From a virus (Duplodnaviria > Heunggongvirae > Uroviricota > Caudoviricetes), in IMG/VR virus record IMGVR_UViG_2512047041_000008: a DNA stretch of 56,009 nt; one strand, given 5' to 3'. The notes under the pieces were generated by a model. It worked only from the letters and a program-made list of their open reading frames with translations, made no database searches and had not been told where the DNA came from. Positions 1 to 47,389 of the stretch are shown in pieces (within the stretch, counting starts at the first letter, position 1; the number at the start of each line of letters is the position of its first letter). The translations under genes and the position numbers were made by a program.

Positions 1-1284
1 TTACAGACTTCTTGAAGGTTGCGCAGCTGCTACAACACGCGGTTGATCTTCCGCGGCATCTTCCAGTGCACTTAAATCACGGTCTTTCACTTCTGGCATT
101 TTCAGCGCAGAGATTAAACCAATCACTGAATATGCCATGATCATAATGGCGATCGGATACCAGGATTCCGTCATGGTGCAGAAAATACCCGCCAGGATAG
201 GACCAAAACCGGAAGCGATAAGACCACCAATTTCTTTAGAAATAGCCATCCGGGTAAAGCGGTTTTTACAGCCGAACATTTCTGCCATGGTAATGTTTTC
301 CAGAGCAAATAATCCCAGCACCGCACAGTTATGAATCACAATCAGTGCAACCATAATGGTGCTCGGGGCATAGCTTTTATCTACGATGATAGAAAGCATT
401 GGCCACGCCAGCACAATCGCAGAGGTATTCATAATAATATACGGGATCCGGCGACCTATTTTATCGGATAACCAACCAAGGAACGGAATGGTCATAAAGC
501 CGAGAATCGAACTGATCATCAATGCATCTGTTGGAATTGCTTTGTTAAACAATAACGTCTGCACTAAATAGCCTGCAAGGAAAGTCTGAATTAAACCGGA
601 GTTACCAGCCTGACCAAAACGCAGCCCTGTTGCCAGCCAGAAGGATTTGCTCTGGAACATGCTACCAGCAGGTGCAGGTTTTGCTGTCGGTTGGTTACTG
701 TCGTTAACCTTCTCAAAGACCGGGCTTTCTTTCAGATTCATACGCAACCAGATAGCAAAGACCATCACGACAACGCTCGCCAGGAAAGGTATACGCCATC
801 CCCACGCCAGCAGTTCCTCTTTACTGAGAATGAAGAACATAAAGGCCCAGATTGCCGTTGCGCTCAAGGTTCCGCAGTTAGTTCCCATAGCCACAAATGA
901 GGAGATAATTCCGCGCTTACCTTTTGGCGCATATTCCGCCAGCATCGTACCGGCACCGGAAATTTCCGCGCCAGCCCCCAGCCCCTGAATAATACGCAGC
1001 GTCACCAGCAAAATTGGCGCAAACACACCAATTTGTGCATAGGTCGGCAGCACACCAATTAAGGTGGTACAGATCCCCATCATGGTGATGGTAATAAAGA
1101 GCACTTTTTTACGCCCTATTCTGTCGCCCATTTTGCCGAAAATAAATGCTCCGACAATACGTGCCACATAACCTGCACCATAGGTTCCCATTGCCAGAAT
1201 TAACGCCATTGCCGTTGACGATTCAGGAAAAAATATTTCATGAAAAACTAACGCTGCGCCGAGCGAATATAACTGGAAATCCAT
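1..1284 (-). CDS. ydfJ: MFS-family transporter (metabolite:H+ symporter-like), chromosomal gene flanking the prophage
   Basis: 427-aa ORF, multi-TM, MFS signature around GRKKVLF; matches recalled E. coli YdfJ, which is the Qin prophage neighbour. Confidence 0.8.
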   Translation of the reverse strand: MDFQLYSLGAALVFHEIFFPESSTAMALILAMGTYGAGYVARIVGAFIFGKMGDRIGRKKVLFITITMMGICTTLIGVLPTYAQIGVFAPILLVTLRIIQGLGAGAEISGAGTMLAEYAPKGKRGIISSFVAMGTNCGTLSATAIWAFMFFILSKEELLAWGWRIPFLASVVVMVFAIWLRMNLKESPVFEKVNDSNQPTAKPAPAGSMFQSKSFWLATGLRFGQAGNSGLIQTFLAGYLVQTLLFNKAIPTDALMISSILGFMTIPFLGWLSDKIGRRIPYIIMNTSAIVLAWPMLSIIVDKSYAPSTIMVALIVIHNCAVLGLFALENITMAEMFGCKNRFTRMAISKEIGGLIASGFGPILAGIFCTMTESWYPIAIMIMAYSVIGLISALKMPEVKDRDLSALEDAAEDQPRVVAAAQPSRSL

Positions 1285-2069
1285 AATTCACAGGTGTTTT
1301 TTCCCATCCTGTGGTTTCCTTGGCGTTTTCTAGGTTTTTTCAGATAGTTGCATTTTTTAAAAAGCATCCTAAGTTCGATCTCAGTGTCTATCTGGGGCCT
1401 ATTTCTGTCCCATATATGCCCCAAAAAAACTCCTCAACAGATAAGTAGTTTTTTCATGGAGTTACGCGTAAAATCAATAACGGCTGGAAATCATTCAATA
1501 CTCGCACTATCGAAAAATTTACCAGCCAACCGCAGCACGTTCTTGCATAAGGCGTGTCTGCGGTTTTTCAACTATTCAGATACATCACTCCCATCACATT
1601 CATTCCTCCGCATCAAAGGCATATAGGCTATATCACCTTGATATTTTTCTTCTTCAGATAAAAACTGTTATCTATGTATACTTTTAAACCCAATCCGTGT
1701 AGAGTCTCTGCATAAGATAGTTTGCAGTTGCCACTTCAGCTTGCGCCATAAACCGCCTGATTTTTGCCGCCATCTGTTAGCATTCCTGTATACCTGAAAC
1801 GACAATGTTTATCTACGAACTTTAAGAACACCCAGGATAAAAATTGTCAACTATATCATATATAACACATTACTAATTCGAGGCTATATGAACAGCATAC
1901 TGATAATCACTTCGCTCCTTATCATATTCAGCATTTTTAGTCATGCTCTAATAAAATTAGGGATTGGCATATCCAATAACCCAGACAAAACCGATGTATA
2001 AGTCAACATATCCTGAATCAGACATACAATATCGCAATGAAAATCAATAATATTTTAAGGAATATATTC

Positions 2070-2303
2070 ATGAAATCAAAAGACACCCTAAAGTGGTTCC
2101 CTGCGCAGCTTCCTGAAGTCAGAATTATCCTAGGGGATGCTGTAGTGGAAGTAGCAAAACAGGGAAGACCTATCAATACCAGAACATTGCTTGATTACAT
2201 TGAAGGAAACATAAAGAAAAAATCATGGCTGGATAACAAAGAATTATTACAAACAGCGATATCAGTTCTTAAAGACAACCAAAATTTAAATGGTAAAATG
2301 TAA
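2070..2303 (+). CDS. ydfK: YdfK/YnaE-like cold-shock-inducible prophage protein
   Basis: ORF 2037..2303; internal start MKSKDTLKWFPAQLPE matches recalled YdfK/YnaE. Confidence 0.65.
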   Translation: MKSKDTLKWFPAQLPEVRIILGDAVVEVAKQGRPINTRTLLDYIEGNIKKKSWLDNKELLQTAISVLKDNQNLNGKM

Positions 2304-2619
2304 TATAATAAACTTACTTTTTTATCATTTTTCCACTTTAACAACATTTTGCTCCACTTTTCCACGACCAAACAACTTGAAATCTGGTTAAAATAACACG
2401 CAACACTATTCTTCTTCCTTGAGTCCGCCCGGAACTCGAAAAACAAACCGAGTTAAAGCCATTTTTCACAAAATCGATTTTGGGTCTCACCAAAATTACG
2501 GGGTTGCATACGCATTCGTTTATTTTCGAACGTGTACATACAAACATGCACAAAAATAATCAAAATTATTTTCTGAGATGCATTATGATATGAACACCAA
2601 TTTCGTATAGAGTCTCACT

Positions 2620-2979
2620 ATGTCTCGAATTTTTGCTTACTGTCGGATATCAACGCTGGATCAGACCACCGAAAATCAATGCCGGGAAATCGAAAGTGCA
2701 GGTTTTAAAATCAAACCTCAGCAAATAATCGAAGAACACATTAGCGGCTCAGCAGCAACCAGTGAGCGTCCTGGTTTTAACCGGTTGCTTGCTCGCCTGA
2801 AATGTGGTGATCAATTGATTGTGACAAAACTGGATCGCCTTGGTTGTAATGCAATGGATATCAGGAAAACAGTGGAACAACTGACCGAAACAGGTATCAG
2901 AGTGCATTGCTTAGCATTGGGGGGCATTGACCTGACCAGTCCAACAGGAAAAATGATGATGCAAGTAATTTCAGCAGTC
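2620..2979 (+). pseudogene. pin: Serine recombinase / DNA invertase (Pin-like), N-terminal part, interrupted by IS629
   Basis: N-terminus [15 protein letters not shown] is a resolvase/invertase catalytic-Ser motif; reading frame runs straight into the IS629 end, which supplies the stop codon. Confidence 0.8.
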
Positions 2980-3021
2980 TGAACCGCCCCGGGTTTCCTG
3001 GAGAGTGTTTTATCTGTGAAC

Positions 3022-3912
3022 TCAGGCTGCCAGATCATCGTTTCCGATGGAAGCATAATAAGCTTTTTCTGCTTCTGCCGGAGGAGTATGGCCCAGCCTT
3101 TCCAGCAATCGTCGATTGTTATACCAGTCCACCCACGTGAGTGTGGCCAGTTCCACTTCTGCACGGTTTTTCCAGCTCTTACGGTGTATTACCTCCGCTT
3201 TGTAAAGACCATTGATGCTCTCCGCCATCGCGTTGTCATACGAGTCGCCTGTACTTCCTGTTGATGCCAGTAATCCGGCTTCCTTAAGCCGCTGTGTGTA
3301 GGCCAGCGATACATACTGAGAACCTTTATCACTGTGATGGACCGTGCCGGACGGTCGACGGGCCCATAACGCCTGCTCCAGTGCATCCAGCACGAATGTC
3401 GTTTCCATGGACGATGAGACCCGCCACCCCACGATGTATCCGGCAAACACATCAATGATGAACGCCACATAGACGAAGCCCCGCCATGTGCTGACGTAAG
3501 TAAAATCAGCCACCCACAGCTGGTCAGGTCGTTCTGCCACGAACTGACGGTTTACGCGGTCGCCTGCGGCAACGGCTTTCCGGCTGATGGTCGTACGGAC
3601 CTTTTTACCCCGGAGAACACCGGCAAGTCCCATAACCGCCATGAGACGTGCCACAGTGCATCTGGCCACTCTGATACCTTCCCGTAACAACTGACGCCAG
3701 ACTTTACGCACACCGTATACCTTGTGATTTTCATCGTATACGCGCTGTATCTCTTTCTTCAGCCAGTCATCGCGCTGCGCACGGGCACTGCGTTTATCCG
3801 GATGATGTCGCTGTTGCTGACAGTGGTAATACGTTGACGGGGCAATATGCAGTTCGCTGCATAGCGGTCCGACCCCGTACTGCTCACGCAGCTTATCCAG
3901 CAGTGGCATCAT
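3022..3912 (-). CDS. IS629 transposase OrfB (DDE catalytic domain)
   Basis: 296 aa, DDE/rve-type; start overlaps orfA stop (ATGA). Confidence 0.85.
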
Positions 3913-4235
3913 TTTTTCCAGAGGCGGTCGAACTCCGCCTTCGCAAAATAAGCGGAAGCCTGGCGAAGGATATCGTTACTGCGGCGCAGTTCACGATTTT
4001 CACGTTCCAGCTCTTTCAGACGCTGACGTTCAGCGGTGGTGAGCCCTCCATCACCGCCCCCGGTATCCCGCTCATGCTGGCGAACCCAGACACGCAGAGT
4101 CTCCGGCGTACAGCCAATCTTTGGAGCAATGGAACAAATTGTCGCCCATTGTGAGTCATATTCGCTCTGACTTTCCAGAACCATACGGACTGCCCGTTGA
4201 CGGACTTCGGGGGAAAAACGAGTATTTTTAGTCAT
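3909..4235 (-). CDS. IS629 transposase OrfA (HTH)
   Basis: 108 aa, [19 protein letters not shown]...; IS3-family OrfA. Confidence 0.85.
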
Positions 4236-4289
4236 CCTGTTTACCTCTTTCTCAGGAAGTTTAGTCTCCAGGATTCCCGGGGCGGTTCA

Positions 4290-4523
4290 GTCGCTGAATT
4301 TGAACGAGACCTTTTACTTGAACGCACTCATTCCGGGATAGTAAGAGCCCGGGGCGCAGGAAAACGTTTTGGTCGACCACCTGTGTTAAATGAAGAACAG
4401 AAACAGGTGGTATTCGAACGGATTAAGTCAGGTGTAAGTATAAGTGCCATTGCCCGGGAATTCAAAACCTCGCGGCAAACCATTTTAAGAGCCAAAGCAA
4501 AACTTCAGACACCTGACATATAA
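4290..4523 (+). pseudogene. pin: Pin-like invertase C-terminal part (HTH DNA-binding domain), separated from N-part by IS629
   Basis: After removing the IS and one GTC copy the frame continues ...[19 protein letters not shown]...; Fis/Hin-type C-terminal HTH. Confidence 0.75.
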
Positions 4524-4750
4524 AAAATAATCTCGGTGTGAGATGCCTTACGTCTTCCAAGCCCCCTTCCTTGCCGTAAATGGAAAGATACATCTAATTA
4601 TAGAATTTATATGTTTTACCCTACGGCAGTGCTGGCCATTCAATATCCTGTGCAGTTGACGTATCAACACGGTTCAGCAACACCCGATACTTCTTCCAGG
4701 CTTCCCGCAACGAGGTTTCTTCCTCCGTTGCATATACAGCTCACCTTTTT

Positions 4751-5044
4751 TCACCCACGATTAACCAACAGCCAGACCAGCAGACACGCCACCACCGGCA
4801 CAGCAAAATCCATCAGACTTGTCACATCCCACGCGCGCGGATCAAAACCGCCCCACCACGGCATATTCATTCGCTTGCCATGCCCGAACATTTCAATCCA
4901 GCGATATTCTGCCTGGGTATGTTCACGCGCAATGAAGAACGTACAACCGGCTATCGCCCCGTAAGCCCAGTTTCCGGTAAAAAGACCAACCAGTACCTGC
5001 GCAGCCACAGCACAAAGTGCATGAAGGAAAGGTGTTATATCCAT
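4751..5044 (-). CDS. Hypothetical small membrane protein (2-3 predicted TM segments)
   Basis: 97-aa ORF with hydrophobic stretches; no recognised family. Confidence 0.45.
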   Translation of the reverse strand: MDITPFLHALCAVAAQVLVGLFTGNWAYGAIAGCTFFIAREHTQAEYRWIEMFGHGKRMNMPWWGGFDPRAWDVTSLMDFAVPVVACLLVWLLVNRG

Positions 5045-5054
5045 TACTCCTCCT

Positions 5055-5759
5055 TTATCCGATATCGCTTCGGGAAGTTGATAACAACTTTAATTCTGAC
5101 TCAAGTTCATCAACTCTTTCAGTCAGTTTCTGGATATGGTGAATCAGTGGAACAACCAGACGTTCGTACATTACACCTTCGGCAACAAGGCCATTGCTGG
5201 AAATAGCTTCAGGAGCATCATTCTCGTTAGCTGGTCGCCAGTGAACAAACTGAGGGGCAATTTCTCCTACTTCCTCGGCAATCAATCCATAGAATCCCCA
5301 ATCGCGCCTGTCATTTTCGCATTGCGACCTGTACCACACAGGGCGCATCCTGAAAATGAGATCGGCGTGCTCCGAATCTATCGTCTCTACTGAATGTTTA
5401 TAGCGGATAGACGATGTGGACCGCAGTACAGACGAAATTGCGGGGTCAGGATTAAGATAAAGGTTTGCCGCCGCTGTAGTCGTGCCCAATCCCCACAAAT
5501 AAAACGCTTCACGACCAGTCAGCGGGTAAAAATCTCCACCATAACGACCACTTTCCAGATCGTTCACTTCCACTTTGTTTTTCAGCTTATTATCAACTTC
5601 AGTTTTTGTGTATCTGGTGCTGATATCCTGCTTTGCACTGGTCATATCAGTCTGAAGCGTTGATACTTTTCCGTTAATTGAGGAAATATCTTCCTTGGCT
5701 TTACTGACATCTCCCTTTAACGTGGTGATGTCTCCTGGAATTACTGTCGATGTAGCCAT
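5055..5759 (-). CDS. Tail-fibre-like protein with N-terminal coiled coil and C-terminal intramolecular-chaperone (peptidase S74-like) domain
   Basis: 234 aa; C-terminal pattern SSIRYKHSV...GLIAEEV...YERLVVPLIHHIQKL...LESEL resembles S74 auto-cleaving chaperone domains of tail spikes/fibres. Confidence 0.5.
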   Translation of the reverse strand: MATSTVIPGDITTLKGDVSKAKEDISSINGKVSTLQTDMTSAKQDISTRYTKTEVDNKLKNKVEVNDLESGRYGGDFYPLTGREAFYLWGLGTTTAAANLYLNPDPAISSVLRSTSSIRYKHSVETIDSEHADLIFRMRPVWYRSQCENDRRDWGFYGLIAEEVGEIAPQFVHWRPANENDAPEAISSNGLVAEGVMYERLVVPLIHHIQKLTERVDELESELKLLSTSRSDIG

Positions 5760-5768
5760 TTGTCTCCC

Positions 5769-6050
5769 TCACATCCAGCCACGAAGTTGATGCTCAACAA
5801 CAATCGCGTATTTATCGAATATTGACGATTTTTTTGCATCATTAATGATGCGCACGTTTACAAAATATCCGTCCTCCTTAACACATACCGGTTCGCCATC
5901 TTCAGTCAGTTCTCCGGTTTCTTTGTACACGTTACCTATCACGTCAATAAGAATATCATCCTGCATCGACTCGTCATCATAATAGCCAATACTCTCCATA
6001 AAGGCCGAAAAGTCGGCCCTGTCTGCAAATTTGAGCGTTAAATCTTTCAT
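5769..6050 (-). CDS. Hypothetical acidic protein between stf and the S74-domain gene
   Basis: 93-aa ORF, start overlaps stf stop (coupled); no recognised family. Confidence 0.4.
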   Translation of the reverse strand: MKDLTLKFADRADFSAFMESIGYYDDESMQDDILIDVIGNVYKETGELTEDGEPVCVKEDGYFVNVRIINDAKKSSIFDKYAIVVEHQLRGWM

Positions 6051-8452
6051 TTAATACTCTCCCCCATTTGCGCATCAGTTAATTCTTTATGCCAGAGACG
6101 AAGATTTCTCAAATGGCCGAATAGATGACGAGTTCCCGATGTGGCTTGACCTCCAATTCGAATAAAGGTCCGTGTTTTTACGCCCGTCCACTCCGTTTTC
6201 ATGGTTTTAGTAGCCTCACCGTTAGAAACTACTCGTTTAGTACCATCAGAATAAATATTAAAACCACCAATGAATTTTCGAACATCAGTTCGACCAGCAA
6301 ACACACTAGAAACGTAAGTACTTGTCGACGCTTTATAAGTTTGCATATAAAGCTGACCGTAATATTTCTCAGTTGTGTTAAAAGCGTATGTAATTGACTC
6401 AATAGGTGGCACACCAGAAAAATCAAAAATACGCGGTGCTACATTAGGAGGAATATCGCCCCAATTTCTATTAACCTCGACCAGGCACGTAAGCGGTCTA
6501 TTATAGATATTATTTTCAGTTGGGATCGTCACCATATCACTGGAGCGGGTTGCGGGTACAGTTGTCGTAATAACAAAAGATGAAGCACATCCGCCGTTTT
6601 CAAATTGTGGTGTTGCAAGGTAAATATAATCTCCCGCTTCAGTTACACCACCTTTTTTCGGCGCATACTGAATCATTGCGCCAATTAAGGTTTCACCTTC
6701 AACAGCTTCTATAGTTGCCTCATAGAAAATCCACCCTGTAACCGGATCTTTAGTTGCAGTAGCTGCTATTCTATTGGCTGCTCCGCCAGTTTTTTCTATT
6801 ATCAGAGTTCCGAAAGTTAAATAAGCATCTCCTAAAAATGTATAAACCGACCCATCGTATTTTTCAAAACGCAAACGACAACGAAGACCATCAGGAGCTT
6901 TAACCCTGCATGAAACAGTGCAATACTTATTATCGCCACTAACATCAATCCCCCGGGATGCACTGCATGTATGCAGACTAAGTGCAGATGATTGTCCTGT
7001 CATATTATCTTTTGTTCGCATTTTGGCATATGAAAAACCAAATTCATCAACACCATTATTAGTTTTATCGATATTGCTGGTACTCGTCCATTCAGCGGGG
7101 ATATTGGATTTAACAAAATAGTTAGTGCGCTGTCCTTCAATCAATAAACCTTCTTTTTCAAATCGTGGCTCATCAATTTTAGCAACACTAAATACGCCTG
7201 ATTTATTGATATATGTGGCAGTTGATGCGCGTTTAAACTTTACAACCTTATCGCCAGGCATCGTTATTTCATCATCACCAATAACAATCTTTTTATATGA
7301 CGGCGAAAAGCCCGTAATCATATCCAGTGAATCGTTAAACGGTATCCACACATCGGGAAGCGGCTGCAAAACTTGTTTATACGGCTCCGCAGCCTGGCTT
7401 GCATACTCTCTGGCTGCGTCTTCACTTGCTTTTGCAGCCGTCTGGCTTGCTGCCGATGCTTTCGCTGAGTTAGCCGCCGCAGTCTCGCTCGCCTTTGCGT
7501 TGGTTTCACTGGTTTTTGCAGCTTTTTGACTGTTGGCTGATGCAGAGGCAGAAGAAGCCGCCGCACTTGCAGAACCAGCTGCGGCACTCTCGCTTTGGGC
7601 TGCTGCATCCTGACTGTTTTTCGCCGCAGTTTCACTGGCTTTGGCATTCGTTTCGCTGGTCTTCGCTGCCGTCTGGCTGGACTTTGCGTTAGTTTCACTC
7701 GTCTTCGCAGCTTTCTGGCTGTTAGCCGCAGCAGTTGCTGATCCAGTTGCTGAAGTCGCAGAACCGGCTGCCGCGCTCTCGCTTTGGGCTGCTGCAACCT
7801 GGCTGTTTTTTGCCGCAGTTTCACTGGCTTTGGCATTCGTTTCGCTGGTCTTCGCTGCCGTCTGGCTGGACTTTGCGTTGGTTTCGCTCGTCTTTGCGGC
7901 TGTCTCGCTATTTTTCGCGTTGGTTTCTGATTTTTTGGCTGCTGTCGCGGAGTTTTCTGATGCAGTCTGTGAGGTCGCTGCCGCCTGTGCACTATTAGCT
8001 GCATTCGTTTCTGAGGTTTTCGCCGCGTTCTTCGATGATGCCGCTGCAGTTTCGGATTTCTTTGCCGCCGCTGCGCTCTGAGAGGCGGCTTCGGCGTTGC
8101 GTGCCGCTTCTTCCACCATTTCCTCAAAACGACGCAATGCCTCCGGCATGACATCATCTTCCGTCATGGCACCGAGAAAATCATTCAGCGTACCTGGTCT
8201 GGAACCTTCATAGACGGTAATGGTTCCGGCATGTGAAGGCGGAAAACCTTCAACAAGCAGGATAACGCTGTACTGGCCATACTCAACATCCATGCTGTAA
8301 CGCCCGGCTTCATCCGGATTTTCAGAGGCCACCGTGTTCACCAGTACCGTGGTGCTGTTACGCTTTGCCTTCAGTTGAATAGTGCAGTTCTGTATTGGTT
8401 TTCCCGCACCATCTTTCAGCACACCTGAGATTTTTACTGCTGCCATATCCAC
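6047..8452 (-). CDS. stf: Side tail fibre protein (lambda Stf-like N-terminus, Ala/Ser/Thr-rich repeat shaft, lectin-like C-terminal domain)
   Basis: 801 aa; N-terminus MAAVKISGVLKDGAGKP matches recalled lambda Stf; internal tandem repeats. Confidence 0.75.
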   Translation of the reverse strand: MDMAAVKISGVLKDGAGKPIQNCTIQLKAKRNSTTVLVNTVASENPDEAGRYSMDVEYGQYSVILLVEGFPPSHAGTITVYEGSRPGTLNDFLGAMTEDDVMPEALRRFEEMVEEAARNAEAASQSAAAAKKSETAAASSKNAAKTSETNAANSAQAAATSQTASENSATAAKKSETNAKNSETAAKTSETNAKSSQTAAKTSETNAKASETAAKNSQVAAAQSESAAAGSATSATGSATAAANSQKAAKTSETNAKSSQTAAKTSETNAKASETAAKNSQDAAAQSESAAAGSASAAASSASASANSQKAAKTSETNAKASETAAANSAKASAASQTAAKASEDAAREYASQAAEPYKQVLQPLPDVWIPFNDSLDMITGFSPSYKKIVIGDDEITMPGDKVVKFKRASTATYINKSGVFSVAKIDEPRFEKEGLLIEGQRTNYFVKSNIPAEWTSTSNIDKTNNGVDEFGFSYAKMRTKDNMTGQSSALSLHTCSASRGIDVSGDNKYCTVSCRVKAPDGLRCRLRFEKYDGSVYTFLGDAYLTFGTLIIEKTGGAANRIAATATKDPVTGWIFYEATIEAVEGETLIGAMIQYAPKKGGVTEAGDYIYLATPQFENGGCASSFVITTTVPATRSSDMVTIPTENNIYNRPLTCLVEVNRNWGDIPPNVAPRIFDFSGVPPIESITYAFNTTEKYYGQLYMQTYKASTSTYVSSVFAGRTDVRKFIGGFNIYSDGTKRVVSNGEATKTMKTEWTGVKTRTFIRIGGQATSGTRHLFGHLRNLRLWHKELTDAQMGESIK
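7569..7946. repeat. Two tandem 189-bp (63-codon) repeat units inside stf, within a longer degenerate repeat tract
   Basis: Sequence from 7569 recurs at 7758 with near identity over about 120 bp; encodes repeated SETNAK..TAAK motifs. Confidence 0.8.
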
Positions 8453-8510
8453 TCCACAAAAAAGCCCGCCTGAACCGGCGGGCTGTCATAACACTGTGTT
8501 ACCTGGCTAA

Positions 8511-9110
8511 TCAGAACTTATAACCGACACCCACGATGAAACCGTCAGTGCGCCAGTCGCCACTGCCGGAGCCTTCATAAGCAATATCAATGGCCACGGA
8601 TTCGGTCGGGTTAAACTGCACGCCAGCTCCCCACGCCAGAGACGTGTTGCTGTGGCGATCGTCATCACTTCCGGTCAGCACATCGTGCGTTTTCCCCTTG
8701 TTGTCAGTTACGCGGAGATAATCCCCGGAGAACGTCGAAACACGGCTGTAAGCCACACCTGCCATCGCATAAGCACTGAACCATTCATTCACGCGTACAG
8801 ATGGCCCCGCCATCATGCTGAACCAGCGGTTACGCACGGAATCTTCATGCCAGCGGGTATCGCTGTAATGCGTTTTTTGCTCATCTTTGGCATTGGCATA
8901 ACTGAATGACGTCACCAGCCCCAGCGTGTCCGTAAATTCATAACGGTATTTCACGTTAATGCCCTTCAGGTCATCACTGCCTGGCATATCAGTATGGGTC
9001 TGAAGATACCCGGCGCTTAGTGTGGACTGATGCTCTGCTGCGCTCGCTGGCGTACCAGCGGCAACCAGCCAGACTACTGCGGACAGAATAACAGCACATA
9101 ATTTACGCAT
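8511..9110 (-). CDS. lom: Lom outer-membrane protein (Ail/Lom family)
   Basis: 199 aa with signal peptide and beta-barrel pattern; position after J as in lambda. Confidence 0.85.
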   Translation of the reverse strand: MRKLCAVILSAVVWLVAAGTPASAAEHQSTLSAGYLQTHTDMPGSDDLKGINVKYRYEFTDTLGLVTSFSYANAKDEQKTHYSDTRWHEDSVRNRWFSMMAGPSVRVNEWFSAYAMAGVAYSRVSTFSGDYLRVTDNKGKTHDVLTGSDDDRHSNTSLAWGAGVQFNPTESVAIDIAYEGSGSGDWRTDGFIVGVGYKF

Positions 9111-9177
9111 AATTACCTCTCGCTTTTCTGCAATAAAAAAGGCGTCATTTCTGACGCCCGTATTGGGGTTATAAAAT

Positions 9178-12100
9178 TCAGCTGATACTGATGCCTGCGG
9201 TGGCTTTCTTCATCACCACAACCAGCAAATCGCTGATACTTGCTGTGGGATACCAGTCATTTACCAGCCATGCTGACACCGAAAACTCCAGCGTCATGTG
9301 ACCGTGACCGGCAGGCATATCAATAACGCCACTGTAAATCAGCGTATTATCCAGCGCGGTACGGTTATAAATTTCAGCACCGTTTTTCCGCACTATCAGA
9401 CGGCATGAGGAGTAAATATCAGTATGCTCTCTCTCATGTTTAGCGCCGCTGAATGCCACCGCCGGAATAACAATCTGCCGGTCAAACGGCTGATCGTCAT
9501 AAATCCTGACGGTAATGGTCCCTGATGGCCACCGTTCCGGTGCACGGGAGTCCCGGGGGAAAGCTTTACCCACTGTTTTAACGAGATCGCCTTCAATCTG
9601 GTTCGCGGACAGTTTTCCCAGAACCCGGCAGTTCTCGTTAATCGTGACGTTGTTGAGCGTCCCGGAGTTCGCATTCACGTTACCGCTGATATCGGCATTT
9701 TTCGCCGTCAGCCGCCCGTCCGGTGTCAGGGAAAATGCCGGAGGATTACCGCCGCTGGTAATGGTGGGAGCCGTCAGATATTTCAGGAACACTTCGTTCA
9801 TGAATATCTGATCGCCCTGACCAACAAACATCGGCTTTGTGTTGCCATTCGCAGGATTAACCATCGCAATCCTGTCCGCCGCCAGCAGCACCTGACTCTG
9901 CATGCCGTCAGGGGTGTTCTCAATACCGGCACCAATACCCGCGATATAAAGGCGTCCGTCCTGCATCTGCTGCAGCTTCACAGCCCACATGCTGTTCAGG
10001 TTATTATTTGTATCAACCTGAACCTTCTGTATCTGCTGAATTGCCGCACTCTGGTCTTCCAGTTTCTTATTGACGGTCTGCGTGATTTCATTGCTGACAT
10101 CCGTAATGGACGTCCTGATTTCAGCCAGGTCAGGCGCAAGCTGACCGTTATCAATCTGCGTCCACAGCTCCTGAGCCAGATGGCTTTTCCCTATCTCGCC
10201 TTTGAAAAAATCCAGATAGCCGGATGCATCATCACTCGGCTGGCCAACAGCCTCCACAAATGCCGATTTGCCAACGGTGTTCACACTGCGGATGTAAAAA
10301 TAATAATCATGGCCCGGTTTGATATTGATACTGGCAGCTATCCAGTACAGCGCCGTGCCAAGATAGCGGGCTGTGGTTTCAACCTGCCTGATATCCGCAA
10401 TCCGCTTTTCCGAGAACCAGAACTCAAACTGTACCGTCGGATCATAAACGGCAAGATGGGGCGTGGCGGTTATCTGAAAATAGCCCGGCGTCAGCTCAAT
10501 CCGCGACGGCGCTGCCGGTGCGGCAATACGGAACGATACCGATGCCGGATCGCCCTGCTGCCCCCAGGCATTTGCCGCCCGGACTGTCAGCCTGTAGTTT
10601 CCCAGCGCCAGTTGCGTGAAGCGGTATGTGGTTTCCGTCGTCCGGGCCGTGCTGACCAGCCGCTCACTGCCGTCATCCGCTGCCACGGTCAGGCGAAGCA
10701 GGAAGCTCACGCCCTTCACCACCTTCGGTGTGTCCCATCGCGCCAGCACCTGATATTCCCCGCTGTCTGCAGTGACTTCTGCGGTCAGGTGCTGCACCGC
10801 TGGCGGCGTGACACCATTCACCGTGCCACTCTGTTCGCCGTCAAAGTGCGCCCCGTTATCCACGATGGCCTCTTTTTCCGGCACATGCTGCACGGCGGTG
10901 ATGGCATACGTGCCGTCGTCGTTCTCACGGATACTCACGCAGCGGAACAGTCGCTGGCGCAGCGTCGGCAGCTTCAGCCCCCATACGCTGTATTCAGCAA
11001 CACCGTCAGGAACACGGCTCACTTTTACCTTCACGCCGTCGGTGACGGACTGAACCTCCACGCTGACCGGATTGCCACTTCCGTCAACCAGGCTTATCAG
11101 CGTGGTACCGGAGGATGGCAGCGTGATTTCACGGTCGAGCGTCAGCGTCCGGGTCTGGCTGTTCACCGCCAGCACGCGACCACCGGTGCTGATACCGGCA
11201 TAGTCATCATCGCAGATTTCAATGACATCGCCCGGCACATGGCGAAGCCCTTCTGCGCCCACGCTGAAATCCACGGTCTGCGTTTCCAGCAGTTCCGTTT
11301 TAATCAGCCACAGCCCGGCGCGGTGTGCCTGCCCCCGGCTGGTACAGCCAAAGGCATCCATCTTCGTGACATTACGACCGTAACGGGCAATGGCCTGCGT
11401 ATCTTCAACAAGCTCTGTCGCCGTCTCCCAGCCGTTGTCCGGGTCAATCCAGTTCACCTCAACGGCATTATGGCGGTCCTTCAGGGCGCTGAAGCTGTAG
11501 CGGAACGGCGCGCCATCATCCGGCATCACCACATTACTGCGGTTATAGGTCCACACCTTATCCGACTGTCGGTCCTGCACGAACGTCAGCGTCTGCCCGT
11601 TCCATACCGGCATACAGCGCATCGCCGAGCAGAAATCACTGAGCACATCCCACGCCTTGCGCTGTGTGGTCAGGTACGCATTACAGGTGATGCGCGGCTC
11701 CGTGCCGCCAAAGCCGTCCGGCACTGACTGGTCGCAGTACTGGCCGATGACATACAGCGCCCATTTGTCCACATCCGCCGCACCAAGACGTTTCCCCATG
11801 CCGTAGCGCGGGTGGGTCAGCATATCCCACAGACACCAGGCCATGTTGTTGCTGTATACTGGTTTTAACGTTCCGTCCCAGATACCGCTGTATTGTCGCG
11901 TCTGCGGGTTATAGTTCGACGGCACCTGCAGAATGCGCCCGCGAAGATGATAATTACGGCTCACCTGCTGGCTGCCGAACTGCTCCGAGTCCACCTGTAC
12001 GCCGACCAGTGCCGTGTTCGGGTAGCACTGTTTCACATCGATGATCTCGGTGTATGACGACCAGAGCGTTTTGTTCTGCAGCTGGTCTGTGGTGCTGTCC

Positions 12101-20564: not shown

Positions 20565-21905
<1,341 letters not shown>

Positions 21906-21913
21906 CCACTACA

Positions 21914-22260
21914 ACAGCCTCATCCCGCGTGGCGTGAAGTGCATCAGTATGCAGCGTCACCAGTGCCACAACCGTGACCAGATCAGCCGTATCAGTCACG
22001 GTATCCGGCTGCGCTGATACAACCTCATTTTCATGTCCGGTCAGCACATTTTCCGGGCTGAGAGGGGTCTCCTGACCGGCAGTGTCGCCCGTGTCATCAA
22101 GCTCTTCTTCCAGCTCTGCCACACGGAGCGCCAGTTCTTCTTTCGTCCCCGTCAGGCTGATATCACGGTTCAGTTGTTCACCCAGCGAGCGGAGACGGGC
22201 AATCAGTTCATCTTTCGTCATGGACTCCTCCACAGAGAAACAATGGCCCCGAAGGGCCAT
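21914..22260 (-). pseudogene. FI: FI N-terminal portion (DNA-packaging accessory protein), truncated by IS insertion
   Basis: MTKDELIARLRSLGEQLNR... matches recalled lambda FI; frame runs into the IS end after ...HATRDEA. Confidence 0.8.
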
Positions 22261-31163: not shown

Positions 31164-32589
31164 TAATGCCAGTCAGTTAAGCAACTGACTGGCTCTTTTT
31201 CGGGGCTGTGGGGTATTTCCAGGGCCTCTCCTTTACCACTCTCGGGAAGGCCCTTTCCCTTCTTGTCGGTAATTTCACAAGTTGTCCCATACTTGCAAGA
31301 TCGCGCATCAGCTCCGGTATACGTCCCGGTGAAGCGCCCTGCAATGTCATCAGCATTCTCATCACCATTCCACATGATTCTGAGAAACTCAGTTGATTCG
31401 GCCAGTAACCTTTCAGATGTTCTGCCATTTTAATCATCTGATATCTCACCAGATTATAAGCCAGTAAGACACCCCACAGCTCTTGCTCCACAAGCTCCGG
31501 TTTTTTACTTCTCAGCGTCAGCCTGCTCAGTTGCATCGTCTGTTTTATCTCCCTGTATCCCAGTTCGATTTCCCAGCGATGACTGTACAGATCCGCCATT
31601 TCTCCTCCGGGGAAGCGCATGGCGTCCGTCATCGACGTCAGCAGATGGCAGACTTTTCCTTTGCGCGTCACGGTCAGCAGGCGGGCTGTCACTTCATTTC
31701 CCAGTCCCGGCCACTTTTTTCGTGCCTGCGGGCTGGTTTTCAGCTTCACCAGATGATCGCCTTTACCCAGTTTTCTGATCTCTTCATATTGCGCTCCCTT
31801 TCTGAGAGGTATCATCCAGTGGCGGTGTTCTCCCGCCAGGCTCCAGGCATTTAACAGTCCCAGTGAGTAATAACCTTTATCCATTAACGTCAGAGTGTTA
31901 TCGCCGGTTTGTTCTATAAGTTGCTCAGCAAGCTCATTTTCGCTGTTCTTCATCGTGCCGAAGGCTGCAGCCGTCAGCAGATGGCTGGTCAGTTCCATCT
32001 GGCAGACCATTTTGACCTGCGGGTAGAGCGCCGGGTTCCCGGCATGTGTCTGGCGGGGGAAGGCTGCATCGTTCTCTGGTGTATCCGGTGTGCGCCAGAA
32101 CACACCATCGATGGCCAGCAGGGTCAGGCCGCACCAGTGCGGATGCGGCGTGGCGTTATGCCAGAGCTGCGCTGTTTTCGTGAACACGCGGCGGACAGCC
32201 TCACTTCCCAGGCGCTGGCGGGCCTGAATAACGGCACTGGGGGCAACGAAGGGGCGATTGCCCGGCAGCATGATGTCCAGGCGATTCACAATCTGGTGAA
32301 GAGGTTCTTTACGCTCAAGCGCCATGCCAACAATACACCAGACCATCATTTCGAGGGGAAGACGGCGCTTGCGTAGCGTTACAGTACCTGATTCGGCAAG
32401 GCAACGAGAGATGAGTTCGGGGTCGAGGTAATCCCCCAGAGAAGTCAGTGGGTTACGCAGAGAATCGTAACGGGATACCAGATCAAGAGCCTGTCCAATG
32501 TGCATAAAAAAATCCGGAAACAAGTGAGCGTTTCCGGATTCTTACACAGCCACTGGATCGGTCAACTGATCCTTAACTGATCGGCATTA
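31164..32589 (-). mobile_element. IS4, 1426 bp, flanked by 13-bp target-site duplication CGACAGACGGCTG
   Basis: Terminal repeats TAATGCC(A/G)(G/A)TCAGTTAAG; identical 13-mers at 31151-31163 and 32590-32602. Confidence 0.9.
31177..32523 (-). CDS. IS4 transposase
   Basis: 448-aa ORF matching recalled IS4 transposase (probable true start MHIGQALDL, 442 aa). Confidence 0.9.
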
Positions 32590-32770
32590 CGACAGACGGC
32601 TGGCATTTAAGTATTGTGAAATATTATCAAATGTAATCATCATTGATTTACAAAAGATACATTTTGCCCCGAAAGGATTCATGTCAGAAACATCAAAAGA
32701 TGATGTTCTATACTGGGAACCATGACAACACGGGCATCTAAAGTGAATATGGTTTGTAATATTGTCTACC

Positions 32771-32983
32771 TCAAAGCGCCACTACATGAACAGCGGCAGG
32801 ACCTTTAGGTCCGTTCTCAATACCAAATTCAACTTCCTGATTCTCAGTTAATGTTTTGAAATCGTTGCTCTGAATTGCTGAGAAATGGACAAACACATCT
32901 TTGCTGCCATCTTTCGGCGTGATGAAACCAAAACCTTTTTCAGGGTTAAACCATTTCACTAAACCAGTCATTTTGTTAGACAT
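32771..32983 (-). CDS. cspI: Cold-shock protein CspI-like
   Basis: 70 aa; RNP motifs KGFGFI and VFVHF. Confidence 0.85.
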
Positions 32984-33345
32984 AATTATTACCTTTTGAA
33001 GAAATTAGCCCTTGGGCAGAATGGTCCGAAAAAAAATATCAGAGAGAAAAACCAACAAGGAAATCTCAAGAGGTACAAATAATAAAATTATAACAATGAC
33101 TGCTTCAGATAAATTTGTAACAAACCAGAACACCATTAACGCATGATTAACCACCCATAGCAAGGATTACTTTTGTAAAGAAAAACACAGCAATGAAAGA
33201 ATAGCTTTATTTATTAATAAAACGTGTCATTCTGATTAAGACCTTTTATCTTACCCTTAAGATTTCAGGAATTTTGGCTCATGGAAGAGTCCTTTTTATT
33301 TAAATTTTACATTCCGCGATGTAAATGTTCCGATTTAATATTACC

Positions 33346-35291: not shown

Positions 35292-35654
35292 TTGATTTTA
35301 TTAGTAACAAGTATTTTTTATATTTTAATAATATATTTAAAGCAGATAATAAAAAACCCGCCTGAGCGGGTTTGAGATTGTGGTGCTTTTTGTGGGAGTC
35401 ATCCACTTACGCACTTTGTTTTGCCATGCCAGCAGTTAGCTTCTGCTGTAAAACTATTCATGCAGCAAACCTGCACTTCACCACAATGGTTAGCATACTT
35501 TTCCTGATTAAGATTTTGCCAAATATGCTAGCCATTGTTTCATGTATTGGACCTCCTTACTTTTTATTAAAGAGATCCAATATTCACTACTCTGTCCGTA
35601 TCTCTACTCAGGCATCAGCCTTCTTCGTTATCGTATACAGACGAGCGATGAATT

Positions 35655-35870
35655 TTAATCAGTAATGATGACATTTGCTGCTGCAGGACCTTTAGCACCA
35701 CTCTCTATAGAGAAGGTAACCTTTTGACCTTCAAATAAGGTTCGATAATTATCATTCTGAATCGCAGAAAAATGCACAAACACATCTTTACTACCATCAA
35801 CAGGAGAAATAAAGCCGAAACCTTTATCAGCGTTAAACCATTTTACTAAACCAGTCATTTTATTTGACAT
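35655..35870 (-). CDS. cspB: Cold-shock protein CspB-like
   Basis: 71 aa with CspA-family RNP motifs. Confidence 0.85.
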
Positions 35871-36170
35871 TCTACATTCCTTAACTTGAGCCTTTCGGCA
35901 TAAATGGTTTGCATAACAGAAACGACTTCGTACTTAATTGGAGAGACTCAAAGAAGGAATAAGTGAATAACACCTGAAATGAGAACTGCTTTAGTAAACT
36001 ACTTCGTATATCGTCTGTTCTTCAAACCGACGCAATCATTAACGCATAGTTGAACATATGAAGCAATGTTTATTTTAGACATCCAGCCATCTTCAACCCC
36101 ATCAAAAAACTATAGCTTTCTTCAGGAACGTGTGTATAGTGCGCCAAGTTATCAGTATTAAGGAATTTTT

Positions 36171-36804: not shown

Positions 36805-39502
<2,698 letters not shown>

Positions 39503-39545: not shown

Positions 39546-40364
39546 TTAAGCAGCCATCTGATGATATTTTTCCCTGAAGGCTGCCGGGGAGATATTCCCC
39601 AGACGAGAGTGACGACGCTGACGATTGTAGAAAATCTCAATGTATTCCCGTATTACTGAGATGGCTTCATCCCGGTTATTAAAACGATAGTGGCTCAGGC
39701 TCTCATTTTTCAGCGTTCCCCAGAAGCTTTCCATCGGAGCGTTGTCGTAACAGTTACCTTTACGCGACATTGATGTTTTCAGACCAAACTGCTCCTGTAT
39801 GACCCGGTAATCGTATGCGCAGTACTGTGAACCTCGATCAGAGTGGTGGATTAGCCCGGCAGGTGGGCGCTGGCTCCTGAGCGCCATAAACAGGGCTTTA
39901 CCTGTCAGCTCTTTTGTCATGCGCTCTCCCATGGCGTAGCCGACAATTTCGCACGTATAAACATCTTTGATGCCAGCGAGGTACAACCATCCCTCCTGTG
40001 TGGCAACATACGTCAGGTCCGCCACCCAGACCTGATTTGGTGCTGTAGGAGTGAACGTCTGGTTCAGCAGATTTGGCGCAACTGGCAGATTGTGGTTCGG
40101 GTTCGTAGTCGCTCTGAACTTGCGTTTCTGCTTACAGCGTAGCCTTAGCTCCTTACGAAGACGTGCCAGTCGGTCACGACCAACGATGATGCCATTCTCT
40201 GCCAGCTCCGTCTGGAGCCGCCGGGTTCCATATGTTTCGCGAGTGCGGATATGTGCCACCTTAATCTCCAGTTTTAGCCGCTCATCACTTTGTTTTCTGT
40301 CTGAGGGTTCATGCTGTACCCAGTTGTAATAACCGCTCCTGGATACACCAAATACCTGACACAT
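39546..40364 (-). CDS. IS600 transposase OrfB
   Basis: 272 aa DDE. Confidence 0.85.
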   Translation of the reverse strand: MCQVFGVSRSGYYNWVQHEPSDRKQSDERLKLEIKVAHIRTRETYGTRRLQTELAENGIIVGRDRLARLRKELRLRCKQKRKFRATTNPNHNLPVAPNLLNQTFTPTAPNQVWVADLTYVATQEGWLYLAGIKDVYTCEIVGYAMGERMTKELTGKALFMALRSQRPPAGLIHHSDRGSQYCAYDYRVIQEQFGLKTSMSRKGNCYDNAPMESFWGTLKNESLSHYRFNNRDEAISVIREYIEIFYNRQRRHSRLGNISPAAFREKYHQMAA

Positions 40365-44280: not shown

Positions 44281-44323
44281 GTGAACCGCCCCGGGTTTCC
44301 TGGAGAGTGTTTTATCTGTGAAC

Positions 44324-45214
44324 TCAGGCTGCCAGATCATCGTTTCCGATGGAAGCATAATAAGCTTTTTCTGCTTCTGCCGGAGGAGTATGGCCCAGCC
44401 TTTCCAGCAATCGTCGATTGTTATACCAGTCCACCCACGTGAGTGTGGCCAGTTCCACTTCTGCACGGTTTTTCCAGCTCTTACGGTGTATTACCTCCGC
44501 TTTGTAAAGACCATTGATGCTCTCCGCCATCGCGTTGTCATACGAGTCGCCTGTACTTCCTGTTGATGCCAGTAATCCGGCTTCCTTAAGCCGCTGTGTG
44601 TAGGCCAGCGATACATACTGAGAACCTTTATCACTGTGATGGACCGTGCCGGACGGTCGACGGGCCCATAACGCCTGCTCCAGTGCATCCAGCACGAATG
44701 TCGTTTCCATGGACGATGAGACCCGCCACCCCACGATGTATCCGGCAAACACATCAATGATGAACGCCACATAGACGAAGCCCCGCCATGTGCTGACGTA
44801 AGTAAAATCAGCCACCCACAGCTGGTCAGGTCGTTCTGCCACGAACTGACGGTTTACGCGGTCGCCTGCGGCAACGGCTTTCCGGCTGATGGTCGTACGG
44901 ACCTTTTTACCCCGGAGAACACCGGCAAGTCCCATAACCGCCATGAGACGTGCCACAGTGCATCTGGCCACTCTGATACCTTCCCGTAACAACTGACGCC
45001 AGACTTTACGCACACCGTATACCTTGTGATTTTCATCGTATACGCGCTGTATCTCTTTCTTCAGCCAGTCATCGCGCTGCGCACGGGCACTGCGTTTATC
45101 CGGATGATGTCGCTGTTGCTGACAGTGGTAATACGTTGACGGGGCAATATGCAGTTCGCTGCATAGCGGTCCGACCCCGTACTGCTCACGCAGCTTATCC
45201 AGCAGTGGCATCAT
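44324..45214 (-). CDS. IS629 transposase OrfB
   Basis: Identical to the copy 1 OrfB. Confidence 0.85.
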
Positions 45215-45537
45215 TTTTTCCAGAGGCGGTCGAACTCCGCCTTCGCAAAATAAGCGGAAGCCTGGCGAAGGATATCGTTACTGCGGCGCAGTTCACGATT
45301 TTCACGTTCCAGCTCTTTCAGACGCTGACGTTCAGCGGTGGTGAGCCCTCCATCACCGCCCCCGGTATCCCGCTCATGCTGGCGAACCCAGACACGCAGA
45401 GTCTCCGGCGTACAGCCAATCTTTGGAGCAATGGAACAAATTGTCGCCCATTGTGAGTCATATTCGCTCTGACTTTCCAGAACCATACGGACTGCCCGTT
45501 GACGGACTTCGGGGGAAAAACGAGTATTTTTAGTCAT
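45211..45537 (-). CDS. IS629 transposase OrfA
   Basis: Identical to the copy 1 OrfA. Confidence 0.85.
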
Positions 45538-46029
45538 CCTGTTTACCTCTTTCTCAGGAAGTTTAGTCTCCAGGATTCCCGGGGCGGTTCAAAGTGACAG
45601 CCGTATTGTGGCCCTCATCGGGCCACTTTTCGCCATCAGCCTTTTCTTTAAAGACATATTATCTTTGTATCATTTCTGATAGTTAACATTACAAGATATA
45701 AGTAATGGACGCACTCCCAATTAGTCTATTTAAATCGCCACGAGTTTAACTGACAACCCATGATCAATTATGAATTGCAACTATTTCTGTAGTCACTTTT
45801 GTGGGGACAGTCCACAAAACTGCCAACTTCCGCTTCTTGCTCTTAGCGGACATTAGCATAGGCTATTTACCATAACGCCTCATTACGCGCACCGCCCAGA
45901 CTGACTCAGCGCGTTTCTGGCATATCCCCGGTAAAACAAGTAACAAACCACCCGAAAATGAACACCAGAAACGCGACTTAAGAATCTACCCTATGAATGG
46001 ATATGCACTCAACCGAATCGATCTTGGTT

Positions 46030-46125: not shown

Positions 46126-46168
46126 TGAGGTGTACTGGCAATAGCGGACACAACCATTTGTTCTTTTT

Positions 46169-46987: not shown

Positions 46988-47022
46988 CGCTTCAATGGGA
47001 AATTGTTGTCGCCATTGTTCGA

Positions 47023-47325: not shown

Positions 47326-47389
47326 TATTAGCTCCTTCTGATGCCATTCTATTTCAGGAAGGAGTGTCCGTTAAACTCAGGCTACCTCA

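Follow-up and report, generated by a model that had tools for sequence, protein, structure and literature searches.

A pinQ-type serine recombinase gene split by an IS629-group element in a Qin-type prophage of Escherichia coli

The DNA invertases of the Hin, Gin, Cin and Pin group, which belong to the H segment of Salmonella, the G segment of Mu, the C segment of P1 and the P segment of e14, are roughly 60-70% identical to one another and depend on a recombinational enhancer that binds Fis. The Tn3 and gamma-delta resolvases are members of the same superfamily; in a gamma-delta-type res, the three subsites measure 28, 34 and 25 bp, and their half-sites read CGTCCGAAA / TGTCCGATA. In Tn3 resolvase, the substitutions R71A and R71K abolish recombination (PMC2794168). 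Escherichia coli K-12 carries PinQ (b1545) in the Qin prophage and PinR (b1374) in Rac. The one activity published for PinQ is to invert, in trans, the P segment of e14: overproduction of the K-12 protein shifted P-segment inversion from about 30% to 88%, deletion of pinE locked the segment, and K-12 PinQ was found to contribute to resistance to phage T2 (Kirigo et al. 2025, PMC12529663). That paper reports neither a catalytic mutant nor an in vitro assay, and in its BLAST survey inversions were confined to e14, with none in Qin or Rac (PMC12529663). The insertion sequences IS629, IS1203 and IS3411 (IS51 group) also frequent E. coli prophages; IS629 sub-types lie 4-5% apart and make target duplications of 3-4 bp (PMC3271280).

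We analyzed a 56,009-nucleotide stretch of DNA (hereafter the window; IMG/VR record IMGVR_UViG_2512047041_000008), in which a first-pass annotation had described a Pin-like DNA invertase gene that is split by IS629, shows a clean 3-bp duplication and resumes in frame after the element. Rebuilding the open reading frame bore out a serine recombinase gene split in this way. The gene lies at the ydfJ end of a lambdoid prophage of the Qin type, which shows the following features:

1-1284, minus strand: ydfJ', an MFS transporter gene truncated by prophage integration, marking the chromosomal boundary (from the ORF list; ydfJ is likewise a pseudogene in N32, IAI39 and K-12)
2070-2303, plus strand: ydfK, a cold-shock protein gene upstream of pinQ (annotation transfer from N32 and synteny with K-12 Qin)
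2495-2619, plus strand: decayed res-like region, in which traces of three dyad subsites with TGTCCGAAA-type half-sites persist (from the family consensus and the fixed subsite positions)
2620-2979, plus strand: pinQ 5' fragment, codons 1-120, holding Ser11, Arg9, Asp72/Arg73, Cys76 at the position of resolvase Arg71, and R21C
2977-2979, no strand: left GTC copy of the target-site duplication, codon 120 (Val)
2980-4289, minus strand: IS629-group (IS3 family) element, 1310 bp, transposase genes antisense to pinQ
2980-3004 and 4265-4289: terminal inverted repeats of the element (inverted-repeat scan)
3022-3912, minus strand: orfB, 296 aa (rve DDE integrase core, 8.3e-28; transpos_IS3, 1e-93)
3838-3954, minus strand: ALIL frameshift-stimulating pseudoknot (Rfam RF01497, 120.2 bits; gathering score 50)
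3909-4235, minus strand: orfA, 108 aa (HTH_Tnp_1, 7.4e-13)
4290-4292, no strand: right GTC copy of the target-site duplication (boundary computation)
4293-4523, plus strand: pinQ 3' fragment, codons 121-196 and stop, with the end of helix E, the linker and the HTH_7 DNA-binding domain
4621-4731, minus strand: 3' end remnant of tfa, a tail-fibre assembly gene, converging on pinQ (annotation of N32 and strain 50579417)

The interrupted gene is 591 nt long, and the element in it is flanked by a 3-bp duplication, GTC, with boundaries both read and computed; no longer duplication fits at the ends of the element (for k=4, AGTC versus GTCG). From the ATG at 2620, the reading frame runs through 119 codons and the GTC codon before reaching a TGA contributed by the IS, giving an ORF of 120 aa (2620-2982), while the GTC at 4290 is in frame with the stop at 4521-4523. 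Joining 2620-2979 to 4293-4523 restores the 591-nt ORF of 196 aa. The 3' fragment is annotated in N32 as [quoted passage not shown] and an ORF at 4197-4523 would allow this C-terminal fragment to be read out of the IS end. We scanned the surroundings of the gene and the IS ends for promoters and terminators that might govern read-out into the 3' fragment and found nothing above background. Either the 120-aa N-terminal fragment or the C-terminal fragment encoded by ORF 4197-4523 may retain some residual function.

The element starts TGAACCGCCCCGGG and ends CCCGGGGCGGTTCA, with 26-nt terminal inverted repeats that are 92% complementary. Its length of ~1310 bp and its imperfect terminal repeats beginning TGAAC are those of the IS629 group, and orfA, orfB, the ALIL pseudoknot and the inverted repeats are all intact; the linking of orfA to orfB by a programmed -1 frameshift is taken from the PGAP annotation of N32 and IAI39 ("IS3 family transposase, programmed frameshift"). 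We measured nucleotide identities of 96.3% to the O157 copies annotated as IS629 and 96.2% to IS1203v, above the isoform-level threshold of at least about 95% to elements called IS629; the match with the copy from the phage 21 int record AF017626 is 100%. These identities mark the element as an isoform of the IS629 group (IS629/IS1203/IS3411) that belongs to a sub-type other than that of O157, and so the name IS629 in the first-pass annotation holds for the group and fails for the O157 sub-type. In its 1310-bp length, its orfA/orfB arrangement with frameshift, its ALIL pseudoknot and its 3-bp duplication, the insertion resembles those of IS629, IS1203 and IS3411 in E. coli prophages, as it does in lying in prophage DNA, which these elements prefer (PMC3271280); it differs in being another sub-type in a non-O157 lineage (IAI39/N32). 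The window holds three IS629-type copies, and N32 many more. The second, at 44282-45591, is 100% identical to the first and has its own 3-bp duplication (AAG), and the third lies at 53780.

The rebuilt 196-aa protein matches Pfam Resolvase (PF00239, E=9e-36, residues 4-144) and HTH_7 (PF02796, E=3.8e-11, residues 147-190), and thus has the architecture of a small serine recombinase, with an N-terminal catalytic domain containing the serine and a C-terminal HTH. It is one residue from K-12 PinR (195/196, 99.5%), the sole difference being R21C, and differs from K-12 PinQ at 3 positions (193/196, 98.5%). Identity of at least 98% and a location at the end of the prophage, flanked by ydfK/ynaE and tfa, place the gene in the PinQ/PinR orthologous group. 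Matches to NCBIfam were only sub-threshold (the Mpi, XisF and CcrB models), and no named equivalog applies. The protein shares superfamily, size and domain order with the Hin/Gin/Cin/PinE invertases, and Gin is its best match among solved structures (3e-28, versus ~1e-22 for the gamma-delta and Tn3 resolvases). However, it is only 36-39% identical to phage proteins of the Gin, Cin, Hin and Fin type and 37% identical to PinE, which places it outside close kinship with the Hin/Gin/Cin/Pin group, and a Gin score that is modestly better than those of the resolvases, together with 37% identity to PinE, leaves a reading of invertase function unsupported. By sequence comparison, PinQ is "Pin-like" mainly by name.

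Ser11 aligns to the nucleophile of both Gin and gamma-delta resolvase. Set against the Tn3 residues Y6, R8, S10, D36, R68 and R71, the rebuilt protein has Y7, R9, S11, E39 (for D36) and R73, with Cys76 in place of R71, so the full essential catalytic set is incomplete. The arginine at this position is kept in 115 of the 120 nearest cluster representatives, and the cysteine is common to PinQ and PinR of K-12.

Relatives of PinQ with 64-84% identity have a Tn3-like res of three subsites within the 120 nt before their ATG. The family res consists of three dyad subsites at fixed positions, built of TGTCCGAAA-type half-sites; two of them span about 26 and 32 bp, and the third overlaps a TATAAT-like box. 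Across the wider family (69 unique loci), half-sites at fixed positions occur at 3.9 per 200 nt versus 0.04 expected. This arrangement resembles res of the gamma-delta type described above. At the E. coli PinQ/PinR loci the site has decayed. In the window, no 12-nt half of subsite A matches with fewer than 4 mismatches, and the figures are 3/10 for the left half of subsite B and 1/9 for subsite C. Searches across the whole window found the family half-site at chance level (11 versus 13.9 expected) and no instance of the family 26-bp dyad. The relatives of PinQ resemble the Tn3/gamma-delta resolvases in their res, and the rebuilt protein resembles them in its score; there is no transposase partner, and E. 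coli PinQ/PinR, including the window gene, differ further in their decayed subsites and the change of Arg71 to Cys. An 84%-identical homologue lies on a plasmid as a lone gene amid IS66 elements and hypothetical genes, a setting that is functionally uninformative, and live phages conserve PinQ/PinR at an identity of about 99%. It is conceivable, though on balance doubtful, that PinQ/PinR of the E. coli lambdoid prophages and phages is a relic of a plasmid or Tn3-type resolvase instead of a bona fide invertase. If so, its effect on the e14 P segment would be indirect or PinE-dependent, for example through mixed tetramers or site occupancy, and the IS knock-out would remove a DNA-binding modulator instead of an active recombinase.

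The gene order of the locus is that of K-12 Qin (ydfJ'-ynfT-ydfK-pinQ-tfa-stf), and the window gene has the same neighbours as PinQ and PinR of K-12, with ydfJ', ynfT and ydfK upstream and tfa and stf converging downstream; it also shares with them Cys76 and the decayed upstream site. It differs in its interruption by the IS, in R21C and in the adjacent tfa, which is a 3' remnant where K-12 carries full tfaQ/tfaR; the remainder of the tail-fibre module has been swapped for another one. The prophage has taken at least nine insertions of IS elements or transposases.

We compared the locus with 5426 complete E. coli genomes. The rebuilt empty site, annotated as pinQ, has matches over at least 80% of its length in 2671 of them, with identities up to 99.8%, so the in-frame reconstruction is no product of chance; the 5' half of pinQ is present in 2839, and intact alleles are common. 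In contrast, the left junction occurs in only 4 of the 5426, all independently assembled, and both junctions occur only in N32. RefSeq already annotates both gene halves and the IS in N32, which is near-identical, and in IAI39. Compared directly, the window and N32 show 11 mismatches in the first 24 kb and match at >99.9% to about 40.7 kb, beyond which the window differs from N32 in an extra IS4-family element and a retained prophage early region that is absent from N32; its own strain is thus not one of the 5426. IAI39 has an 863-bp deletion abutting the IS (window 4290-5152). AR_0013 and AF57 run from the same IS into sequence bordering the third IS copy at 53780, and that IS also contains a group II intron. 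Of the insertion carriers compared, the window and N32 have R21C (T at 2680) and IAI39 and AR_0013 lack it, which indicates that it arose after the insertion. These comparisons establish the anatomy of the split gene, its orthology and the order of events, and they trace the junctions to a single origin, after which descendants underwent differing secondary rearrangements.

Our explanation, which we hold with high confidence, is that an IS629-group insertion inactivated pinQ, once, in a decaying prophage. In a Qin-type prophage at ydfJ, an active IS629-group element jumped into the pinQ orthologue at codon 120, making the usual 3-bp duplication. The insertion parts the catalytic domain (residues 1-120, then the TGA of the IS) from the last part of helix E and from the HTH domain; with the catalytic domain severed from the DNA-binding domain, the recombinase is predicted to be inactive. 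It is one of many IS hits in this decaying prophage, whose E. coli lineage (IAI39, N32 and their relatives) is rich in IS elements, and one insertion in a common ancestor was followed by different later rearrangements in its descendants.

It had also been suggested that tail-fibre inversion switching, if this prophage had it, would now be frozen. That a Pin/Gin/Hin-type invertase once ran an invertible tail-fibre segment here, until the IS fixed one orientation, is suggested by the place of the gene beside tail-fibre genes and the tfa remnant, a feature shared with the Hin/Gin/Cin/PinE systems, by Gin as the best match among solved structures, and by the historical gene name, "P segment inversion." The 37% identity to PinE argues against it, as does the DNA around the gene, which lacks the adjacent 26-bp inverted crossover sites and the alternative Sv/U cassette of those systems. 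Searches of the window with the e14 crossover repeat TTGGTTTGGGAGAAGG and with the hix/gix-type 26-bp consensus returned no match, so that none bounds an invertible segment in the flanks, where the first-pass annotation had proposed looking for them; the pix half-site TTCTCCCAAACCAA gave one 3-mismatch match, at 41051, a position remote from the tail-fibre genes, which is fewer than expected by chance. Scanning window positions 1-12000 for inverted repeats, we found the IS termini as the only convincing pair, the others being weak (70-80% complementarity), and around pinQ/pinR in K-12 Qin, in Rac and in phage 2H10 we found only chance-level pairs (70-80% complementarity). A GTAATCAA-centred pair between the stf 3' region and ydfK recurred in all three of these loci; its recurrence is due to locus homology, and we did not accept it as a site. 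The window, K-12 Qin and Rac, and the live phages 2H10 and Kati all show J-lom-stf-tfa running towards pinQ with just one tail-fibre set, and we found no inverted second tail-fibre cassette in any of these. With one stf/tfa set and no crossover sites, there is no local switch to freeze, and the published survey likewise confines inversions to e14 (PMC12529663). A frozen switch is largely refuted and, in our judgment, very improbable; the conditional wording of the original suggestion was apt.

Other readings concern what the insertion does, or whether it is real. The IS might abolish an anti-phage role in trans, in which PinQ inverts an e14-type P segment elsewhere to yield an adsorption-blocking StfE2 chimera, so that defence is lost. 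The K-12 data of Kirigo et al. (PMC12529663) point this way, and N32, with its one pinQ-type copy, has no back-up. However, the icd locus of N32, where such a segment was looked for, holds another prophage remnant with no pinE, stfP or stfE annotated, and e14 is absent from this, its usual site; the locking of the P segment by pinE deletion suggests that PinQ action may depend on PinE; catalytic-mutant and in vitro evidence are missing from the paper (PMC12529663); and PinQ has a cysteine at the essential Arg71 position. We consider this role improbable here. Less probable still is a reversible switch, in which pinQ is restored by precise excision, promoted for instance by an IS-excision enhancer (IEE), as happens with IS629 in EHEC. 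The duplication and flanks are intact, such that precise excision would rebuild the full ORF with R21C, and IEE-promoted excision of IS629 restoring a gene is documented in PMC9397093 and bioRxiv 10.1101/2023.06.07.543989; yet we found no revertant among the genomes sharing the insertion, each of which kept the IS or lost more DNA. Misplacement of a multicopy IS into pinQ during assembly is conceivable given the number of copies in the window and N32, but the duplication and the in-frame rebuild are perfect, and the identical left junction in four independently assembled complete genomes, with the right junction in N32, makes an artefact the most remote of these readings.

We return to an insertion that inactivated pinQ once in a decaying prophage. 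Because the prophage has neither crossover sites nor an alternative cassette, this loss would be without consequence for tail-fibre switching. It was probably near-neutral more broadly, since the PinQ/PinR lineage lacks an intact cis site and the canonical catalytic arginine, and since e14, which holds the sole trans target reported, is missing from icd in the closest complete genome. Against this, K-12 PinQ is reported to contribute to T2 resistance (PMC12529663), and losing pinQ could carry a cost in a strain with a P-type invertible segment at another place in its genome.

The split pinQ is a real, ordinary gene loss that is already known and annotated. IS629-group insertions into prophage genes are common, and the pseudogene and IS already stand in RefSeq genomes of the lineage, so the finding in itself matters little. 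It does mark the lineage cleanly, with events whose order can be read (insertion, R21C, then deletions that differ by descendant), and it is a pinQ knock-out that arose naturally in a lineage of clinical origin, N32 being a CSF isolate. It also serves as a corrective, in that a gene called "Pin" beside tail-fibre genes need not imply a tail-fibre switch. Finally, the res of the wider family, its decay in E. coli and the change of Arg71 to Cys bear on the 2025 claim of PinQ as an anti-phage recombinase.

The window holds one Qin-type lambdoid prophage, running from a truncated ydfJ to a tyrosine integrase (54714 to the window end). The neighborhood of its recombinase gene matches that of the Qin prophage in E. 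coli K-12: truncated ydfJ, ynfT, ydfK and pinQ, then tail-fiber genes converging on pinQ. In the sequence of window 2000-5200, pinQ begins with an ATG at 2620 and continues for 119 codons and then a GTC (2977-2979); the TGA that comes next in frame already belongs to an inserted element, as its first three bases. Directly after the element ends at 4289, GTC is repeated (4290-4292), and the frame from 4290 stays open to a stop at 4521-4523; no duplication longer than 3 bp fits. Deleting the element and one GTC copy (2620-2979 joined to 4293-4523) restores an ORF of 591 nt and 196 aa with Pfam Resolvase (9e-36) and HTH_7 (3.8e-11) domains. This rebuilt protein has a single difference, R21C, from PinR, the serine recombinase of the K-12 Rac prophage, and three differences from K-12 PinQ. 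The first-pass annotation, a serine-recombinase gene split by an IS with a clean 3-bp duplication, its N-terminal 119 codons reaching the IS and its C-terminal HTH part resuming in frame, is thus borne out.

Of 5426 complete E. coli genomes, 2671 match the rebuilt empty site across 80% or more of its length, annotated as pinQ, and 2839 have the 5' half of the gene. The split is already known from public genome annotation: RefSeq has both halves as pseudogene fragments on either side of an IS3-family transposase. We regard this as an ordinary insertion by an IS into a prophage that is decaying and has at least nine IS or transposase insertions in all (three IS629-type, an IS3-family, an IS4-family, IS100, two IS600 and one ISNCY transposase). 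The mobile elements are as follows.

2980-4289: IS in pinQ, exactly 1310 bp, 26-nt terminal inverted repeats (92% complementary)
Within it, minus strand: OrfA, 108 aa, HTH_Tnp_1
Within it, minus strand: OrfB, 296 aa, rve; NCBIfam transpos_IS3 (1e-93)
Within it: ALIL frameshift pseudoknot, Rfam RF01497 (120 bits)
44282-45591: second IS629-type copy, 100% identical to the pinQ copy, own 3-bp duplication AAG
52470-53779: third IS629-type copy, 95.5% identical to the pinQ copy, different sub-type
31177-32523: IS4-family element, absent from the E. coli genome N32
20692-22000, 37142-38943, 39546-40364, 46126-47391 and 47387-48610: the other five of eight mobile-element intervals besides the pinQ IS
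In gpFI: IS3-family element
In the Q antiterminator gene: IS100

The element in pinQ is identical (100%) to the IS of the phage 21 int record AF017626, 99.2-99.5% identical to copies from several Stx phages, 96.3% to O157 copies annotated as IS629 and 96.2% to IS1203v. Judged by these identities, the name IS629 can stand for the group, because IS629 sub-types lie 4-5% apart, IS1203 and IS3411 are counted as isoforms, and the target duplications made are of 3-4 bp (PMC3271280); this copy is not of the O157 sub-type. The element has evidently been active recently. At the third copy there is no target-site duplication (flanks CAG and GAA), which suggests a past rearrangement there.

Several RNA features accompany these genes. 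A full-length Rfam match to the Hfq-binding sRNA isrC (20724-20846, plus strand, 145 bits) lies at the start of the IS3-family element interrupting gpFI and is probably part of that element's end rather than of the phage. Two cspA-type thermoregulator leaders (32744-33129 and 35639-36031, both minus strand) correspond to genes annotated in N32 as cspI and cspB. A sok antisense RNA (48684-48855, minus strand) probably pairs with the toxin gene hokD, which a related prophage carries. The csp leaders and sok are usual Qin cargo.

Only four complete genomes share the left pinQ/IS junction (IAI39, AR_0013, N32 and AF57, accession OZ546943), and N32 alone shares the right one; a fifth record was rejected as it matched the left junction only as two separate pieces. 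Across the first 24 kb the window and N32 differ by 11 mismatches; farther along they diverge, the window keeping an early region that is absent from N32, so that the source strain is a close relative of N32 outside the set of complete genomes searched. IAI39 has lost 863 bp directly next to the IS (window 4290-5152), and with them the 3' part of pinQ. In both AR_0013 and AF57, this IS has acquired a group II intron (ltrA) and meets the flank of the third IS copy at 53780; the stretch of prophage that separated these two direct copies is deleted. The window shares R21C (T at 2680, CGC to TGC) with N32 only. The substitution arose after pinQ was broken, because IAI39 and AR_0013 share the insertion and lack it. 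Events thus began with a single insertion in a common ancestor; R21C followed, and deletions came last, independently of one another. In N32 the Qin-type prophage is cut short at an IS600 and abuts ydcL'/tehB, in a region whose orientation is opposite to that of K-12; this points to a rearrangement near the terminus, mediated by IS elements and absent from the window's strain.

It had also been proposed that the insertion froze a tail-fiber switch, if the prophage had one, but this is unsupported: no crossover sites were found in the window, which has a single tail-fiber set and no inverted second cassette. A search of the window for 26-bp gix/hix-like sites found none, with no match to the hix/gix-type consensus or to the crossover repeat of the e14 P segment; the pix half-site gave one distant match with 3 mismatches, below chance expectation. 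The first 12 kb contain no convincing inverted repeats except the IS itself. The same gene, at 98.5-99.5% identity, is found in K-12 Qin, Rac and the live phages 2H10 and Kati, each with the order J-lom-stf-tfa converging on pinQ and a single tail-fiber set with no inverted second cassette. A published survey likewise reported inversions in e14 only, and none in Qin or Rac (PMC12529663). The label "Pin-like" fits mainly as a name: identity is only 37% to PinE, the e14 invertase, and 36-39% to phage invertases of the Gin/Cin/Hin/Fin type. Solved-structure matches of the protein include Gin (3e-28) and the gamma-delta and Tn3 resolvases (about 1e-22).

The side tail-fiber gene itself (6047-8452, minus strand) is a single ORF of 801 aa in the window, in which a unit rich in Ala, Ser, Thr and Glu is repeated (repeat pairs near 7475-7723 and 7664-7909). 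For the near-identical sequence in N32, PGAP gives a set of pseudogene fragments and short ORFs. The window's distal tail-fiber module is also present at the icd prophage of N32.

PinQ of K-12 has been reported to act in trans (Kirigo et al., NAR 2025; PMC12529663). Its overproduction leads to inversion of the e14 P segment (1797 bp), which yields a chimeric StfE2 that blocks T2 adsorption, and deletion of pinE locks the segment (PMC12529663); we found no catalytic-mutant or in vitro test in that paper. In N32, the closest complete genome, the single pinQ-type copy is the split one, and the icd site, the e14 position in K-12, holds a different prophage remnant. Judging from this one locus of a relative, loss of pinQ probably had no consequence for the P-segment pathway in this lineage, because pinE, stfP and stfE are not annotated at the N32 icd site.

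The rebuilt protein and K-12 PinQ and PinR have a cysteine at position 76 (TGT, 2845-2847), where Gin, PinE, gamma-delta and Tn3 have the essential catalytic Arg of KLDRLGR. The aligned Tn3 residue, R71, is one of six whose mutation abolishes recombination (PMC2794168). Among the closest 120 cluster representatives (75-99% identity) Arg is kept in 115, and Cys is confined to the PinQ and PinR clusters of E. coli plus a single cluster at 84%. Arg is likewise found in relatives of 86-92% identity, in an Erwinia-phage homolog (61%) and in two phage homologs of about 45%.

We surveyed 69 unique loci of PinQ-family members (64-84% identity), which lie on both plasmids and chromosomes and come from Enterobacterales, Methylomonas, Nitrosomonas and Paraburkholderia. 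Within the 120 nt that precede the ATG there are TGTCCGAAA-type half-sites at fixed positions, with a density of 3.9 per 200 nt versus 0.04 expected by chance. Those at about -115 and -98 form a 26-bp dyad, TGTCCGAAACCG-NN-CGGTTTCGGACA, those at about -75 and -52 form a 32-bp dyad, and a third subsite at about -33 and/or -21 overlaps a TATAAT-like box. This follows the logic of Tn3/gamma-delta res, with three subsites before the gene; we read a gamma-delta-type transposon res as CGTCCGAAATATTATAAATTATCGCACA, a 34-bp subsite and TGTCCGATATTTGATTTAGGATACA, then the ATG. The subsites are decayed in the window (2495-2619), K-12 Qin, Rac, 2H10 and Kati, where neither 12-nt half of the first dyad has a match with fewer than 4 mismatches, and no res site of the PinQ-family type was found elsewhere in the window. 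Because relatives have a res-like site, and here the subsites are decayed and Cys replaces Arg, the gene of the PinQ/PinR lineage appears to derive from a resolvase and to have lost both its cis site and a canonical catalytic residue.
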